NCBI GenBank assembly: GCA_016840085.1
Contig: JAEOTA010000063.1
Span: 1-28,297 of the forward strand
DNA: 28,297 nucleotides
From: Promethearchaeota archaeon
GTDB lineage: Archaea; Asgardarchaeota; Lokiarchaeia; Sigyniarchaeales; SOKP01
Direction: 5' to 3'
In this document: in pieces, positions 11,653-20,899 of the stretch
How positions within the stretch are numbered: position 1 is the first letter of the stretch
How the letters are laid out: each line of letters begins with the position of its first letter
Translations under genes and position numbers: made by a program
The notes under the pieces: generated by a model
What the model saw: the letters and a program-made list of their open reading frames with translations, nothing else
Told to the model about the DNA's origin: nothing
Databases searched by the model: none

Positions 11653-11984
11653 TTTATTTCCTCGTTATTAATTGGAATCAATTAAAACATATACATAAGC
11701 GTAAAAAATCTGCTATTCTATAATGTTTTGATATTATCTTTCATAACTTAAATGTTAGAAAGGTTGTTTTTATAAAAAATTTGTTGTATAATAATATAAA
11801 GAGGGATATAAATTTAGCAAATCAAAATTAAGCTTTTAGTCTTTATAATGATAAAGGTTCTAAGAATCCAGAAATTTTAAATTGATATCTGAATCTAGCT
11901 TATCCTTAAACTTATTAACTTTTATACAAATTTTATATTAAATGTAGTTATAATTTAACAACACTTTAACTCTCACTAATTAAC

Positions 11985-13100
11985 ATGGAATCTACGAAGA
12001 GTGAAGACTGTCTTATTTTTTATGGGTTCACACCAGAAATTATTAAATTAAAACAAGTCTATCACGCGATAGAAGATTTTATAAAAAGTAAGCAAGCTAA
12101 TGATCCTTCTGATAGATTTAATCTAATAATATTTCAAAAAGATGGCCCAAATTATTTGGATCATTTTACTTTTGAACCAGATCATATTTTAAAAACTTTG
12201 AAATCATTAAAGAATAATATTGTTCGAGCTAATGTCGCTGGTGGGATTTTTATAGCTATTACATTTATAATTGAAGTATTCAAGAAAATTTCTGAAAAGA
12301 TATTTCGATTAGTAATATTAATCGATGAAGGCACTTATGAAATTCCTGAAGAATATATTCATCCTATAGAAGAATTAATTAAAGTAGTAAAGAATATGCC
12401 ATTTTTTATTGATATTGTGAGGATTAGTGAGGAAAATTCTGAAGAAAGCATAAAATTAATGAAATTAACACACTTATGTAATGGCGAGTTCTATGAAATT
12501 GATAATCTTCGCGATCTAACTCCTTTATTAAATAGACTTTCTGAAAAAAAATACATTTCTGAACCTACATTTATTAAACAAAAAATAAGGATGATCCTGA
12601 AGGAAAATCAACCATTTTATATTAATTTAGCTGATGAGCCTAAAATTATAAAAGAGAGGGCAACATGTTCAATTTGCTTTCATGAGGATGATTCTGGTAT
12701 ATTACAATGCCCCTCATGTGAAACATTAGCACATAACATTTGTTGGGCACAATGGGCTAAAACATCAAATATTGGTATTCCCCATGTATTTAGATGCCAT
12801 AATTGTTTTAATATACTAAAACTTGACAGTGATTTTGTTTTTGATGTTCAAGCAGGAAAGATTCCTTCAATAGCTGAATTAAAAAAAGTGAAGAAAAGAA
12901 ATATTGTTGAATATTTACACGAATTAGAAGCTAAAGAAAAGCCTAAAATAATTCATGCTAAGGTCCCAATGGGCGTCGAGATTAAAGAGACTAGCCAAAA
13001 AAAGTTATTGCAGAAAAAGATCATTATTTGTCCCAATTGTAGCCGAATTATTATCGGAGATAAGAAGAAATGCCCATCCTGCAATTTTATTTTGTTTTAG
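11985..13100 (+). CDS. vWA-domain (Rpn10/Ssl1-like) protein with C4HC3 RING/PHD-like finger and C-terminal Zn ribbon
   Basis: FIKSKQANDPSDRFNLIIF...RLVILID...FFIDIVRI...LTHLCNGEFY fits a vWA fold. The finger is CSIC-x10-CPSC-x4-H-x2-C-WAQW...CHNC. The ribbon is CPNC-x10-CPSC. Confidence 0.75.
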   Translation: MESTKSEDCLIFYGFTPEIIKLKQVYHAIEDFIKSKQANDPSDRFNLIIFQKDGPNYLDHFTFEPDHILKTLKSLKNNIVRANVAGGIFIAITFIIEVFKKISEKIFRLVILIDEGTYEIPEEYIHPIEELIKVVKNMPFFIDIVRISEENSEESIKLMKLTHLCNGEFYEIDNLRDLTPLLNRLSEKKYISEPTFIKQKIRMILKENQPFYINLADEPKIIKERATCSICFHEDDSGILQCPSCETLAHNICWAQWAKTSNIGIPHVFRCHNCFNILKLDSDFVFDVQAGKIPSIAELKKVKKRNIVEYLHELEAKEKPKIIHAKVPMGVEIKETSQKKLLQKKIIICPNCSRIIIGDKKKCPSCNFILF

Positions 13101-13227
13101 AGATTGTTTGAAAAGTGCACCTTAAACTTTTATTAATACAAATTCTATATCCTATTTGAAAAGATTTTTATTAAAAACTTGGATCATTAATATTAGTATT
13201 TGTAATTATCTTGAAATCCCTTTTTCA

Positions 13228-14352
13228 ATGTCAAATATAAAATATCAATTATCTCATATCTTTAAACATAAATGTGCTGTATGGGAGTTTACTCTAAAAT
13301 GTAATAGTAAATGTATTCATTGTGGCTCATCGGCAGGTAAACCTCGATTAAATGAACTCAATACTGAAGAGGCTTTAACATTAGTAAAGGATCTAAATTC
13401 TTGCGGTTATGATGGAATAGCATTAATGGGAGGGGAACCATTTTTACGAGATGATTGGTATGAAGTTGCTCAGGAAATTAAAAAAAATCAAATGAAACTT
13501 ACACTTGTTTCTAATGGATTAGATATTATAAGTCAAATTCAAAAATTAAAAAGTTTGCAAACAGATTGCGTTTCTTTAAGTTTAGATGGTGGAACTCCTA
13601 AAACTCATGATTACATAAGAGGAATTAAAGGTGCATTTGATAAAGTATTACATGTTATAAACGTTTTAAGAAAAGAAAAGTTACCTGTTAGTGTCATTAC
13701 TACAGTTAGTAAGATTAATTTTAAAGAATTAAATCTGATTCGAGATTTATTAATTAATAAAAAAATCGCATGGCAAATTCAAATAGCTTTACCTATAGGA
13801 CGCTCTTCAAGGGATTTAGTGATTACTAGAGAGCAATTTTATGCTGTAGCGATGTTTATCGCAATAAATCTTAAAAAATATTCGTCGAAAGAATTACCTT
13901 TAATAGGAGCTCATTGTTTTGGTTATTTTTCTAATCTTTTACCGGAATTAGGTTTAGATCCTTGGATTGGTTGTCAAGCAGGTAGATCAGTTTTAGGTAT
14001 TCAAAGTAATGGAAATATTAAAGGGTGTTTAACTCTACCAGATGATTTTATCATCGGAAATATCAGAGTTAACAATTTACATAATATAATAAATTCAAAA
14101 ATTAATTCTAAAAATTTTCAATTCTTTCATAAGAATAATTCAGAAAATTACTGTAGCAAATGTATAATGTTAAAAAGATGTAGAGGTGGTTGTTTAGGTA
14201 CTGCAATTGCTTTTAATTCGTTTGATAATCCATATTGTTTAAGAGCAATTGAAAAAGAAATATTTAAAAATAATTATTTGCCATTTAGGTGGAAAATGAA
14301 TTCTAAAATTTTAGAATATAAATATTTATTCAATAAAATACTTTTTAAATGA
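13228..14352 (+). CDS. Radical SAM/SPASM-domain enzyme (PqqE/peptide-maturase-like)
   Basis: AVWEFTLKCNSKCIHCGSSAG (CxxxCxxC), GGEPFLR, SLSLDG, and SPASM CQAG...GNIKGC...CSKC-x5-CRGGC...C. ATG at 13228 preferred over TTG at 13156. Confidence 0.92.
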   Translation: MSNIKYQLSHIFKHKCAVWEFTLKCNSKCIHCGSSAGKPRLNELNTEEALTLVKDLNSCGYDGIALMGGEPFLRDDWYEVAQEIKKNQMKLTLVSNGLDIISQIQKLKSLQTDCVSLSLDGGTPKTHDYIRGIKGAFDKVLHVINVLRKEKLPVSVITTVSKINFKELNLIRDLLINKKIAWQIQIALPIGRSSRDLVITREQFYAVAMFIAINLKKYSSKELPLIGAHCFGYFSNLLPELGLDPWIGCQAGRSVLGIQSNGNIKGCLTLPDDFIIGNIRVNNLHNIINSKINSKNFQFFHKNNSENYCSKCIMLKRCRGGCLGTAIAFNSFDNPYCLRAIEKEIFKNNYLPFRWKMNSKILEYKYLFNKILFK

Positions 14353-14381
14353 ATTAAAATCAAAAATAGGGTGATCAAAAT

Positions 14382-14642
14382 ATGATATTCAAGGAAATAT
14401 TTCAGTTTTATAAGATTGGGAAAGAATTAGGATTGACTCGAAAAGAAATCGATAGTGTTCTTTTATTTAAAAATAGATCCCCATTGATTCTTACTTTAAT
14501 GCTTATTATAATTCTAGCCGTCTTTGCATTTCTCTTCTGGAATATGGCTTTACTTTTTTACATGAGAACAACTGAACCAGTTTATCCTCGAGGAGGTCTA
14601 TATTCAAGTATTAGTATAAAAGATTTTAAAGATAAAAAATGA
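14382..14642 (+). CDS. Small single-TM protein (86 aa), candidate substrate or partner of the radical SAM enzyme
   Basis: GGTGA SD-like motif upstream, ATGA overlap with the next gene, one TM helix, C-terminal tail RTTEPVYPRGGLYSSISIKDFKDKK. Confidence 0.75.
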   Translation: MIFKEIFQFYKIGKELGLTRKEIDSVLLFKNRSPLILTLMLIIILAVFAFLFWNMALLFYMRTTEPVYPRGGLYSSISIKDFKDKK

Positions 14643-15982
14643 AGTTGAATATTGGTTGCGGAAAAAAATTTGAACCCGATTATTATAATATCGATTTATA
14701 TGATAATTTGGTTGCTGACAAGAAAATGTCAGCTTTAGATCTAGATTTTGCTGATAATTCTTGTCAAGAGGTAAAAGCAATCCATCTAATTGAACATTTA
14801 GGATTTTATCAATCAATTTATGCCCTAAGTGAGTTTTTTAGGGTGTTAGAACCAAAAGGAAAATTAATTTTAGAAACTCCAGATTTAGAAAAGGCTTTTC
14901 GAATTTATTTAAACTCCAATTATGAGCAAAAAAAAGATATACTAAGTTGGATTTATGGACTTCCTCATGAAGGTTTACAGCATAAATTCTGTTTTCCTTC
15001 TCAATTAATGATTGAGATATTAGAAAAGATTGGATTTGATGATATTATTCAAACCAATTTTTATAATCAAGAGTCAATCCCTACTATAAGATTCGTTTGT
15101 AATAAACCCATAAATGATGAATATCTGGGAGTATTTCAAATTTTCTCGTCTATTCGTAAAAAATTGTTGTCTAAAAAAATAATTGATTTCAAGAATTTGT
15201 TTTTAACTAAAGAACAAGAAGATCTATTAAATCTTTTGCTAATTGAAACGATAAAAATCATAAAAAATGAAAAAAAAAGTCTTAAATTTATTGAAAAAGC
15301 TTTAATTTGTTCTCCTCAAATTGTTCAAATCTATCTAACTGAAATGATTAATAGAGGTTACATTTCAAATCTTGAAGGAGATTATATTTTAGAAATTATC
15401 AAATATCTAATTAAATTTAAATTTCAAAATATTTTGTATAGTTCACTTAAAAATGCACCAATTATTCCTGGAAGTCAGAAAATTATATTTTCTTCTATTG
15501 AATCTTTTGGGTTAACATTGATTAATAGATTTTTATATATTAAAGCTGAAAAATCAAAAATAATCAATAATTTAAAGCAATTATCTGAAAGCCTTAAACC
15601 TCGAGAAATTCCCTTTTTTTCTCCTGAAATTATAAAAAGAGACTCTTTAGACTATTTCTATCAAGGGATTAAAGAATTTCATAAACAGGATTATAATAAC
15701 TCATTAGACAAATTTTTAACGGCAATAAAACTGTATAGAGATGATTTTTTATATTATTGGAATTTAGCAAGGGTTTTAGTAAAGTTAAATTTTAAGCAAA
15801 AGGCGATTCGATATTATAAAAGATCATTAAAATTATTAAGTATTACAAAACTTCAAAGTAAGGTCCAAGTTAGAAAAGATATTAAAAGAGAATTAGATTG
15901 GATAAAAAAACAAAAAAGAACACTACCAAAATTGGAACCGATTCAATCTCTTGAGAAATATCAGCCTAAAAATTTATTTTAA
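14639..15982 (+). CDS. Class I SAM-dependent methyltransferase fused to a C-terminal TPR domain
   Basis: KLNIGCG motif I, HLIEHL, EFFRVLEPKGKLILETPD; TPR-like YFYQGIKEFHKQDYNNSLDKFLTAIKL / YYWNLARVLVKLNFKQKAIRYYKRSL. Confidence 0.87.
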   Translation: MKLNIGCGKKFEPDYYNIDLYDNLVADKKMSALDLDFADNSCQEVKAIHLIEHLGFYQSIYALSEFFRVLEPKGKLILETPDLEKAFRIYLNSNYEQKKDILSWIYGLPHEGLQHKFCFPSQLMIEILEKIGFDDIIQTNFYNQESIPTIRFVCNKPINDEYLGVFQIFSSIRKKLLSKKIIDFKNLFLTKEQEDLLNLLLIETIKIIKNEKKSLKFIEKALICSPQIVQIYLTEMINRGYISNLEGDYILEIIKYLIKFKFQNILYSSLKNAPIIPGSQKIIFSSIESFGLTLINRFLYIKAEKSKIINNLKQLSESLKPREIPFFSPEIIKRDSLDYFYQGIKEFHKQDYNNSLDKFLTAIKLYRDDFLYYWNLARVLVKLNFKQKAIRYYKRSLKLLSITKLQSKVQVRKDIKRELDWIKKQKRTLPKLEPIQSLEKYQPKNLF

Positions 15983-15993
15983 GAGGTGTTAAT

Positions 15994-17016
15994 ATGAAAG
16001 AAGAGAGAAATGAAAATAGAGGCAATAAAGTGGGTTTTATTATTTTAGGGATAATTTCCCTTTTTCTGTTAATAATAAACTTTATACCTGTATTTATAAT
16101 TGATGCTGGTTTAGAAAGTAGTTTTACAGGTGATACTGATCCCGATGCCATAATATATGTTAATAAAACAAATCCAGATAAAAATTATGTTGATAATGAG
16201 GATTTATATATTGGAGAGTTTTGTGAAGTTTATTTATATTTCAATCTTGGATCGTTACCAAAGAGAACAGAACAACTATACTTCTTTCTTGAAGAAGACT
16301 TTTCCTATAATTTTTATGATTTTCCTGTAAAAGATATGGAAATAAACGTAATTCTAGTTAACTCAGACTGGGATGCTTCCGAAATAAACTGGAATAATAA
16401 ACCTAAACATGAAAGAATAATTAATACTGTTAAAATTTCCGATATTACTCAAGATCTATTCTTTGAAGGATATAATTTTAAAAGAGCTGTTGATTTAACA
16501 ACGATGTTAAAAGAAAATGAGCCTACAGAAATTAGCTTTTGTTTGAATATCACAGAAAAGAACGAAAAATTAAATAGCAGTGTAAAATTATTTTTGCCTG
16601 GTTTCATATGGAATTATGAAAAAGTTACTCTTTCTTACACTACAATTATTTCAACCCTTGTAGTTTTCTCATGTTTTGTAGGAGCAATCTTTTTCTTGCG
16701 GAAAGATTTATTCTTATGCTCTAATTGTGAGGTTAAAAGAATTCTTGAAGATCAATTCTGCCGTTCGTGTGGGACAAAATTTAACGACAATGTTTTAATT
16801 AAAGGGTGTGATTACCAATTAATATTGGCTCTATTGTGGCTTTTTATACCGATAGAAGTTTCAATCTTGTTTGGAATTTTAACCTTTACGTCTTTAGGAT
16901 TTTTTGGATTTTTTTTGGGGATTTTTATTTTACTTTTAGACATATTTTGCTTGAAACAAATGAGGATAAAAATAAAAAATTATAAAAAATTAAAAAGTAA
17001 TTTAAAACAAACTTAG
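15994..17016 (+). CDS. Membrane protein with extracellular DNRLRE/CBM96-like domain, cytoplasmic Zn ribbon and C-terminal TMs
   Basis: N-terminal TM; YVNKTNPDKNY...LYIG...YLYFNL...DWDASEINWNNKP (DNRLRE-like pattern); TM; CSNC-x10-CRSC; two further TMs. Confidence 0.65.
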   Translation: MKEERNENRGNKVGFIILGIISLFLLIINFIPVFIIDAGLESSFTGDTDPDAIIYVNKTNPDKNYVDNEDLYIGEFCEVYLYFNLGSLPKRTEQLYFFLEEDFSYNFYDFPVKDMEINVILVNSDWDASEINWNNKPKHERIINTVKISDITQDLFFEGYNFKRAVDLTTMLKENEPTEISFCLNITEKNEKLNSSVKLFLPGFIWNYEKVTLSYTTIISTLVVFSCFVGAIFFLRKDLFLCSNCEVKRILEDQFCRSCGTKFNDNVLIKGCDYQLILALLWLFIPIEVSILFGILTFTSLGFFGFFLGIFILLLDIFCLKQMRIKIKNYKKLKSNLKQT

Positions 17017-17070
17017 AAGAGGTAAAATGTGTAAGTAAAGAAAAGAAATTGCCCTATTATTTTTAATGTT

Positions 17071-17598
17071 TTACAACTGGATCTTCAAAATTTTTGGTTC
17101 TTTCCATTCTTCTCTTAGAATACTGAAAAGTATACAATCTCTCCAATCACCTCTATTAAACATCATCTTACGAACAATACCTTCTTTTATAAATCCTGCT
17201 TTTTCAAGCACTTTTTGAGAACCCAAATTCTTTTCATTTGTGACTGCTTGTATACGCACTATTTGTTTTGAAAGAAATAAGAAATCCACAAAAATCTTGA
17301 CTGCTTCTGTACAGAAACCTTTTTTGCGTTCAGATGGAATTAAAAAATATCCTATTTCTAATAGTTCATAGAGTCTAGCCTTAACAATAACTCCTATCCT
17401 TGTTTTGTTTTTTTTCTCTATAATAAATGCTTGAAGATCAGGAGATGATTCTTTAATGATTCTCTGAACCATTTCTTTTGAGATTTGTACCAATGGATTA
17501 TACATCCCAAAAATCTCTGGAGTATTAATCTATTTATGATAAAGTTGAATATCTTCTTGTTCTAATGCTCTTAAATTAACATTTATTCCTTCAAGCAT
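17071..17598 (-). pseudogene. RimJ/RimL-type GNAT acetyltransferase interrupted by an in-frame TAG at codon 23
   Basis: ATG at 17598 reads MLEGINVNLRALEQEDIQLYHK-TAG(17532-17530)-INTPEIFG-MYNPL..., in frame with the ORF carrying LEIGYFL, NLGSQKVLEKAGFIKEG and DCILFSILREEW. Confidence 0.85.
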
Positions 17599-17727
17599 AT
17601 TATTTAATACTCCTCTATTTATATTAAGAATTTATAAAACATACATTTAAATAATTTAGGGCAAAATCAAATATTAATTCGGATTTTATAGTATTTTTAA
17701 TATTCACTAAGAGAGGTTTATAAATAA

Positions 17728-20230: not shown

Positions 20231-20542
20231 TAAATTCAACTATTCCTAAAACTAATTACATATCCATCTCCTTCTAACTGAAGAAAAAAAAGATATCAAA
20301 AAAGAGTTGGTTAAAGACGAAAAAAAATCTTTATCAATAGAAAATATTAAAGTATTATAAATAGAGCCGGCAAAAAGAACGAATGATATAAAAAAATAGA
20401 GCAAATATACAGATAATTAGAGAAATACTTAATGATATAGTTATAACTCAAAATGATTTATGGTTTTTTGTTATATATTATAGTAAAAACAACTAAATAA
20501 CAATAAAAATTTTGATAAAAATAAAAAGAAATTATTTGGAGC

Positions 20543-20899
20543 GTGGAAGATTTGTATAATTCTAAAACATTAGTTGGTGAACTGTTAGGTGCAGTTATAG
20601 CAGTTGTTTGGATAGCTTGGGCATTAATCTGGCCGGAGAATTTTGTAGGTCTCGTTATTGCCATTGACCTTACTATATTGTTGGGTACATTATCGGGAGG
20701 ACTTATTGCGCTAAGTAAAAAGGAAAAAGCGTTTAGAGAAGTAGTTGGCTGGCTGTTTGGCGCAGCGATAGCAGTTGCTTGGGTAACTTGGGCATTACTA
20801 TACCCGGGGGATATGGTAGGTCTCGTTGTTGCCATTTCACTTACTATATTGTTTGGGGTATTATCGGGAGGACTTATTAAACTAAGTAAAAAATATTAA
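20543..20899 (+). CDS. Small 4-TM membrane protein made of two tandem helical-hairpin repeats
   Basis: GTG start after GGAG; two 57-aa units each ending SGGLI.LSKK. Confidence 0.8.
   Translation: MEDLYNSKTLVGELLGAVIAVVWIAWALIWPENFVGLVIAIDLTILLGTLSGGLIALSKKEKAFREVVGWLFGAAIAVAWVTWALLYPGDMVGLVVAISLTILFGVLSGGLIKLSKKY
20570..20893 (+). repeat. Intragenic tandem duplication, 171-bp period, two copies
   Basis: gtaggtctcgtt(a/g)ttgccatt...cttactatattgtt...ttatcgggaggacttatt...ctaagtaaaaa starts at 20645 and at 20816. Confidence 0.9.

Follow-up and report, generated by a model that had tools for sequence, protein, structure and literature searches.

What do a radical S-adenosylmethionine (SAM) enzyme and a methyltransferase modify when the gene between them encodes a membrane protein of 86 residues? 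The question is raised by a block of genes on contig JAEOTA010000063.1 of a Promethearchaeota archaeon (assembly GCA_016840085.1), which was analyzed over its stretch of 28,297 nucleotides, here called the window. The original prediction, made from these letters alone, described four co-oriented genes with a 29 bp gap, an ATGA overlap and an 11 bp gap, and this agrees exactly with the list of open reading frames (ORFs), all four being on the + strand. Comparison of the block with its counterparts in other archaea suggests that the window carries one copy of an archaeal three-component protein-modification cassette, in which the 86-residue protein (sm86) would be the substrate, its Tyr74 the target and splicing the likeliest chemistry, a reading that we hold with moderate confidence. 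The features that this argument needs are the following (aa, amino acids).

13228..14352, + strand: radical SAM/SPASM enzyme (rSAM), 374 aa; from Pfam, NCBIfam, an alignment of 48 orthologues and trees
14382..14642, + strand: sm86, small membrane protein of 86 aa; from homologues, alignment and a Shine-Dalgarno-like GGTGA upstream
14583..14627, + strand: conserved tail motif of sm86, Y68 to F82; from motif counts and invariant alignment columns
14639..15982, + strand: MT-TPR, class I SAM methyltransferase with an all-helical/TPR domain; from Pfam, alignment, structure model, Foldseek and co-occurrence

The longest frame of the rSAM opens at a TTG at 13156; since the homologues are 374 aa long, the ATG at 13228 is the likely start. 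The GGTGA lies 8 nt 5' of the sm86 ATG, and the stop codon of sm86 overlaps the start of MT-TPR as ATGA, by which MT-TPR is translationally coupled to sm86. With 135 distinct homologues across 58 archaeal loci, the 86-aa ORF is judged to be a genuine gene.

Composition of the cassette and its small proteins

The proteins of the window were mapped onto 80 loci, for 20 of which the rSAM served as seed and for 60 MT-TPR, 58 of the latter being archaeal. The two enzyme genes are found together in 18 of the 20 rSAM-seeded loci (in one they lie 5 kb apart and one locus is cut by a contig end), and the rSAM is present in 52 of the 58 archaeal MT-TPR-seeded loci, with a contig end cutting five of the other six. 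Between or beside them sit one to five paralogous small ORFs, and wherever the contig permits inspection the rSAM is accompanied by members of the sm86 family. An analysis of gene neighbourhoods for co-conservation of the small ORF had been proposed as a check, and where the contig permits it no homologous rSAM without such an ORF was found.

The link between methyltransferase and rSAM, at first read from a single operon, was borne out in an even sample of 151 genomes of the window's phylum: 24 carry the rSAM, 24 carry MT-TPR and 23 carry both, so that the two are found together in 23 of the 25 genomes having either. The two genomes with a single gene (G125 and G068) are 85-87% complete, and in both the contig breaks off at the gene. 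With a profile built from the small proteins, matches were obtained in 17 of the 151 genomes, all of which are rSAM-positive. The cassette is also found in metagenome-assembled genomes (MAGs) of Thermoplasmata, Thermoplasmatales and 'Methanobacteriota' (L078, L079, L098, L101 and L102), and MT-TPR is present in 15 of 201 genomes sampled from the phylum of one of those Thermoplasmata-type MAGs. The proposed substrate family of sm86 type would thereby extend to about one in six of the sampled Asgard genomes and to one in thirteen of the second phylum.

Clustering of the ORFs in the 20 rSAM-seeded loci revealed no other widely recurring gene family beside the cassette, proteases and transporters included, which extends to the family the earlier remark that the operon has neither protease nor exporter. 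Compared with the general make-up of systems for peptides made on the ribosome and modified after translation (RiPPs), a precursor of leader and core beside the maturase is thus seen at nearly all loci, and a leader protease or exporter at none of the 20 that were clustered. Nor is a PqqD-like gene or RiPP recognition element encoded with the cassette. As judged from these neighbourhoods, the conserved unit is of three parts: the rSAM/SPASM enzyme, one to five small membrane proteins, and MT-TPR.

The 135 small proteins have in common a helix at the N-terminus that carries the motif [LI]-G-x-x-[LV]-G-[LV]-x-x-x-[ED]-[IV], followed by a hydrophobic segment of varying sequence and a tail of, as a median, 23 residues after the last transmembrane (TM) segment. 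In sm86 the leader-like helix occupies aa 1-32 (with G13 and L16-G17-L18) and the TM segment about aa 33-60, leaving a tail of 26 aa that contains Y68-P-R-G71-G-L-Y74-S75-S-I-S-I-K-D81-F82. G13, Y68 and Y74 are invariant in an alignment of 56 rows. The tail motif is found in 117 of the 122 proteins of types A and B (79 A, 38 B); numbered from its first Tyr, Y0, G3 and Y6 are invariant in those 117, Y6 is followed by S, G or A, and D13-F14 are invariant or nearly so. Type A, to which sm86 belongs (n = 79), reads Y-[PA]-x-G-[TAS]-x-Y-S-[TS]-[VI]-x-x-[KN]-D-F, and type B (n = 38, mostly Thorarchaeota) reads Y-x-P-G-T-x-Y-[GA]-x-I-x-P-x-D-F. Type C, from Heimdall and Thermoplasmata genomes, has two hydrophobic segments and the C-terminus x-Y-G-V-[FY]. 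The second Tyr is accordingly followed by Ser in 77 of the 79 type-A proteins, by Gly in 30, Ala in seven and Asn in one of the 38 of type B, and mostly by Gly in type C. Versions of 63-69 aa in locus L079 are without a TM segment and keep leader and core (...PPSYGGGYYGTISINEL). In locus L103 (5977-9158) MT-TPR is followed by four small ORFs of type C, with no rSAM within 6 kb upstream or 4 kb downstream; it is the only locus in which the enzyme is missing from beside the cassette.

A variable TM segment joined to an invariant 15-residue tail, in multiplied copies beside two enzymes, looks like the pattern of a substrate rather than of a scaffold. The claim that the 86-aa protein is a membrane-anchored precursor thereby gains support from its one to five copies per locus and its invariant tail motif, and sm86 may be regarded as the probable substrate. 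The small proteins fall into no Pfam or NCBIfam family (sm86 was searched against both, ten divergent members also against NCBIfam), and sm86 gave only sub-threshold matches in the ESM Atlas, the best at 0.80. Cys occurs in the tails of only four of 132 small proteins, and since the tails almost never hold Cys, thioether (sacti/ranthi) chemistry is ruled out. Residues 60-72 of sm86 (window 14559-14597) read Y60-X10-G-G-L, like the Y-X10-GDL of TIGR03913 peptides; this is probably chance, because Y60 is not conserved among the homologues.

Lys and Arg are commoner before than after the last TM segment in 52 of 76 type-A proteins, which weakly suggests that the tail is non-cytoplasmic. If so, modification by a cytoplasmic enzyme must precede membrane insertion. 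The geometry is that of tail-anchored membrane proteins, with the last TM segment near the C-terminus and the short median tail, and would permit cytoplasmic modification before post-translational insertion. The likeness is one of geometry only, and unlike tail-anchored proteins some of the small proteins have two hydrophobic segments.

The two enzymes and their bacterial relatives

By its matches to PF04055 (85.2 bits, cut-off 29.5) and to the SPASM family PF13186 (34.8 bits, cut-off 21.5) the enzyme of the window is a member of the radical SAM/SPASM superfamily. Across the alignment of 48 orthologues C25, C29 and C32 of the CX3CX2C motif are invariant, as are seven Cys in the C-terminal half (C249, C267, C309, C312, C318, C322 and C337), so the full SPASM Cys set seen in the single sequence holds throughout. 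Orthologues with 44-85% identity occur across Asgard lineages, namely Promethearchaeota/Loki, Thor, Hod, Hermod, Odin, Heimdall, Atabeyarchaeia and Asgardarchaeum.

When the 48 archaeal enzymes were scanned with the NCBIfam models, each scored best with TIGR04103 (nif11-class peptide radical SAM maturase 3) and TIGR03913 (GDL-motif peptide-associated maturase), the best E-values among the 48 being 1.4e-68 and 8.9e-70, against 5.3e-53 for the next family. The resemblance to Nif11/Y_X(10)_GDL maturases in the original prediction thus stands as far as the top matches go, but does not amount to membership: the window enzyme reaches 195.5 bits against a cut-off of 725 for TIGR04103, and 162.7 bits against 592 (591.75) for TIGR03913. 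On these scores it is a relative of both families and a member of neither. An identity as a heme-type enzyme (AhbC/AhbD/NirJ) was considered and rejected, as the AhbD model gives 135 bits over the radical SAM core only (residues 18-202), whereas the TIGR04103 and TIGR03913 matches are better and full-length; the AhbD model reaches 1e-40 in only 27 of the 48 members. The search against radical SAM/SPASM subfamily models, which had been named as a check, therefore indicates a SPASM protein of peptide-maturase type, and no clustering with AhbC or AhbD was seen. The WgkB, MftC and PqqE models also score significantly on the window rSAM. In a sequence search of the PDB the rSAM matched SkfB (4.6e-16), cytosylglucuronate decarboxylase and PqqE, over the radical SAM core only and with nothing specific.

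A tblastn search of plasmids found a TIGR04103 enzyme of Nostoc that is 32.6% identical over 91% of the window query, and the GDL maturases are about 30% identical to the window rSAM. Our trees separate the archaeal enzymes from those of Nostoc and the GDL family, with a support of 100/99 for each of the two groups. The archaeal enzymes were not placed inside the clade of named spliceases, in trees that held Nostoc as the only TIGR04103 member, and because the deep SPASM order and the outgroups are unstable we claim no sister relation to the spliceases.

In two loci, L078 (3856-6004) and L079 (1249-3353), from the Thermoplasmatales and 'Methanobacteriota' MAGs, MT-TPR is preceded by a tandem pair of paralogues of the cassette rSAM. 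In L079 the pair accompanies the TM-less precursors of 63-69 aa. The two paralogues belong to distinct sub-clades within the archaeal family. Beyond the last SPASM Cys the rSAM ends in a poorly conserved, basic and hydrophobic stretch (residues about 337-374, window 14236-14349; …FRWKMNSKILEYKYLFNKILFK), which could be an amphipathic helix for membrane association.

In MT-TPR the Pfam family TPR_2 is matched at 28.7 bits, at or above the cut-off, and Methyltransf_11 at 21.2, equal to the cut-off. G6, G8 and D19 are invariant in the alignment. The structure model (pLDDT 91.5, pTM 0.87) shows a compact class I methyltransferase at aa 1-155 and an all-helical solenoid at aa 163-424. A Foldseek search with this model matched many methyltransferases with a probability of 1.00, and TPR matches were found in the PDB. 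The N-terminal domain is a class I SAM-dependent methyltransferase, and because the Foldseek matches are to generic class I methyltransferases only, the methyl acceptor cannot be inferred from them.

The nearest characterised relatives of the rSAM are the spliceases, which remove tyramine at X-Y-G; in the binary splicease systems, which are without a Y protein, the leader helix activates the enzyme (PMC11414181, PMC11626197; see also PMC10533398). Spliceases include those of type I (PlpX/PcpX) and of the binary type II (RhaX/RcsX/RasX), and like them the archaeal cassette has an rSAM/SPASM enzyme, for which TIGR04103 is the best or second-best family in all 48 cases. Shared as well are small neighbouring precursors, often multiple, with a conserved x-Y-[small residue] near the C-terminus. 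We take IPR026482 to be the same family as TIGR04103. PlpX falls under IPR026482, a SPASM subclass described as uncharacterised and accompanied by precursors that have Nif11 or nitrile-hydratase leaders (PMC11002830). Like the archaeal cassette, the binary spliceases are without a PqqD-like partner (PMC11414181). The archaeal system differs from the spliceases in that its enzyme scores about a quarter of the TIGR04103 cut-off and forms a clade of its own in archaeal hosts, the leader is not of Nif11/NHLP type, leader and core are separated by a TM segment, the site reads Y-S in the window's clade, and MT-TPR is an obligate partner.

The two bacterial families show comparable arrangements. The Nostoc TIGR04103 enzyme adjoins a Nif11 precursor ending in ...IALYGLPPELF and a small downstream ORF, and the GDL maturases adjoin DUF1843 peptides with P-Y-G. 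In the TIGR03913 systems the enzyme is, as noted, about 30% identical, the family model matches all 48 archaeal members, and the peptides are tandem, small and helical with a Y-G/A site; in contrast to the cassette, their enzymes are about 100-140 aa longer than the window's and the peptides are soluble DUF1843 proteins without a TM segment. The window proteins have no match to DUF1843 in Pfam, and a literature search found nothing on modification of DUF1843 peptides. One locus of this kind, on plasmid pAT1 of Aureibacter tunicatorum (L109, 1650-4420), encodes three DUF1843 peptides in tandem, together with an rSAM/SPASM enzyme of GDL type and a 187-aa methyltransferase of class I. It parallels the archaeal cassette in that a class I methyltransferase follows the rSAM, and sequence comparison of this methyltransferase with MT-TPR gave no significant similarity.

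Proposed chemistry and its rivals

The comparison shows how the genes are ordered, that they co-occur, that the small ORFs are multiplied, that the motif is invariant and where the enzyme belongs among known families; which protein is the substrate, which residue is the target, the type of reaction, what the methyltransferase does and the topology are inferred. In the scheme that we propose sm86 would be the substrate of both enzymes, its N-terminal helix serving as a leader-like docking element and its short C-terminal tail as the core. The rSAM would take a hydrogen at or next to the invariant Tyr74 (L73-Y74-S75; x-Y-G in more distant relatives), and excision of a tyramine unit is the likeliest outcome, a choice favoured because the nearest characterised relatives of the enzyme are spliceases. 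The residue after the conserved Tyr is small in the archaeal peptides (G, S or A), and in the two nearest bacterial families it is mostly G or A and once M. This small residue following a conserved Tyr in both archaeal and bacterial peptides argues for Tyr-directed chemistry, with splicing as the leading candidate. MT-TPR would place a second modification on the same small protein, and its helical domain may be the peptide-binding part; since there is no PqqD-like gene, either this helical/TPR domain or the rSAM itself would have to bind the leader helix. The product probably stays on the membrane protein and is not released, since the cassette has neither protease nor exporter linked to it and the position of the tail, about 23 residues past the last TM segment, is tail-anchor-like in its geometry. 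A predicted complex of the rSAM (with three 4Fe-4S clusters and SAM) and sm86 scored 0.10 against a mark of 0.32; it gives no verdict and is not used as evidence here.

Several observations weigh against splicing of this substrate. The rSAM falls far short of both curated cut-offs, and the archaeal enzymes form a separate clade, with the deep branch order not settled and long-branch outgroups that shift between trees. Where spliceases have the canonical Y-G, 77 of the 79 proteins of the window's clade have Y-S, and the window's own protein L-Y-S. In Pfam and NCBIfam the leader of the small proteins shows no relation to Nif11, NHLP or DUF1843. Finally, a single TM segment puts the N-terminus and the tail of sm86 on opposite sides of the membrane, and the positive-inside signal is modest.

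The most serious rival keeps the same parts and the same substrate and lets the rSAM form a crosslink, for example a Tyr C-C or C-O bridge between or around Y68 and Y74. Bridges centred on Tyr have precedents in the triceptide cyclophanes, in the Glu-Tyr bond made by PqqE and in the Val-Tyr bond made by MftC. Two invariant Tyr, five residues apart and with an invariant Gly between them, would suit such a reaction, and the WgkB, MftC and PqqE models do match the window rSAM significantly. The Y-S of the window's clade, where spliceases have Y-G, and the position of the archaeal clade apart from the spliceases, in which the chemistry may have diverged, keep this rival a serious one. However, among the curated families all 48 members score best with TIGR04103 and TIGR03913 and not with the crosslinking ones, and in the two-TM proteins of type C a TM segment parts the Y-P-[FY] element from the x-Y-G-V tail, which makes a bridge of Y68-Y74 type unlikely as the conserved reaction. 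We regard crosslinking as possible, and as clearly the less probable chemistry for the tail Tyr.

According to a second rival, the small proteins are membrane anchors or scaffolds rather than substrates, and the enzymes modify a lipid, a cofactor or a surface glycan, the last of which had been the alternative offered with the original prediction. Nearly all the small proteins do carry a TM segment, no protease or exporter is linked, the methyltransferase is of the generic KLNIGCG type, and in the window's clade a CBM96/DNRLRE protein is encoded downstream. Multiplied paralogues with a variable TM segment and an invariant short tail nevertheless fit substrates better, the small proteins of L079 have no TM segment at all, the nearest enzyme families are peptide maturases, and most cassettes are without the DNRLRE gene. 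Because MT-TPR strictly follows the rSAM and the small proteins, glycan modification is not favoured, and the anchor or scaffold role as a whole appears improbable. We know of no case among released RiPPs in which a TM segment lies between leader and core, which counts against a classical released RiPP. That an unlinked protease frees the tail as a diffusible peptide, such as a protease inhibitor or antimicrobial, is most improbable: the leader, core, maturase and tailoring enzyme, the patchy and accessory-like distribution with an empty site in the same genus (see below) and the protease inhibition by known spliceotides (PMC11626197) would agree with it, but a conserved protease or transporter was seen in none of the 80 loci, of which the 20 rSAM-seeded ones were clustered, and no GG or other conserved cleavage motif is found between TM segment and core.

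A more far-reaching form of the splicing proposal is that archaea of the Asgard and Thermoplasmata type excise tyramine from tail-anchored proteins, methylate the tail and display the resulting alpha-keto-beta-amino acid, a ketoamide warhead of protease inhibitors, on their surface. Taken with all its parts this is doubtful; if true, it would be a cell-bound, non-released 'spliceotide' in archaea. More generally, the cassette could serve to modify a protein of the archaeal cell envelope after translation and not to make a secreted compound, a view suggested by the nature of the proposed substrate as a membrane protein and by the lack of any linked machinery for release. To our knowledge, radical SAM modifications that alter the backbone have been described almost exclusively in peptide natural products of bacteria. 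Compared with known rSAM/SPASM peptide-maturase systems, the cassette appears to be new in its own enzyme clade, its putative membrane-anchored substrate family, its obligate MT-TPR and its archaeal hosts. No publication on the cassette was found, and the survey of splicease types by Scott et al. 2022 (Chem) might list the archaeal family.

Lineage-specific neighbours and an empty site

Two further genes flank the three parts of the cassette in the window.

15994..17016, + strand: DNRLRE/CBM96 membrane protein with a Zn ribbon; from Pfam and NCBIfam, a lineage-specific downstream neighbour
11985..13100, + strand: protein with vWA-like and RING-like Zn-finger domains; from Pfam, an upstream neighbour only in the closest clade

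The downstream gene matches NF033679 (DNRLRE_dom) at 36.1 against a cut-off of 34 and PF24517 (CBM96) at 34.2 against 26. It had been counted as a member of the unit and as a possible sensor of the product. Its homologues stand downstream of the cassette only in the closest clade (L026, L046-L049, L052, L053 and L089), and as the gene is missing from more distant loci, the sensing role finds no comparative support. The vWA-RING gene is upstream in most of this clade and is absent from L026 and from every more distant locus. DNRLRE, vWA-RING and a GNAT gene were each tried as core genes and rejected, since an iterative homologue search of the 20 rSAM-seeded loci matched only L026. On this distribution the DNRLRE gene is a lineage-specific add-on outside the conserved core.

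In the closest clade the whole block sits between the fwd operon and the 2-oxoacid:ferredoxin oxidoreductase operon. Searches for the rSAM, MT-TPR and the small proteins in four other genomes of the window's genus found none of the three core genes. We compared window 11653-17727 with the corresponding region of one of these same-genus genomes, G008 (99% complete; L119, G008:C26:27000-33000). There the flanking operons lie 970 bp apart, from the ferredoxin gene (fd85) to the oxidoreductase alpha gene, with only a minus-strand ORF of 199 aa between them, and no remnant is left of the 5.5-kb block that runs from vWA-RING to GNAT in the window. From this empty site in the same genus it follows that the cassette is an accessory block, present in some genomes and absent from others at one fixed place. 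The assembly of the window is 4.68 Mb long with 7.6% contamination, and the four same-genus genomes without the cassette are 3.5-3.6 Mb; the bin may include DNA of a second, related archaeon, which is perhaps the source of the window's contig.

Further downstream, window 20543-20899 (+) holds an ORF of 118 aa whose two halves, each about 55 aa long and containing hydrophobic segments, resemble one another. On the opposite strand, window 20458-20835 (-) holds an antisense ORF of 125 aa with an internal repeat, which overlaps the 118-aa ORF, and it is likely that at most one of the two is a gene.

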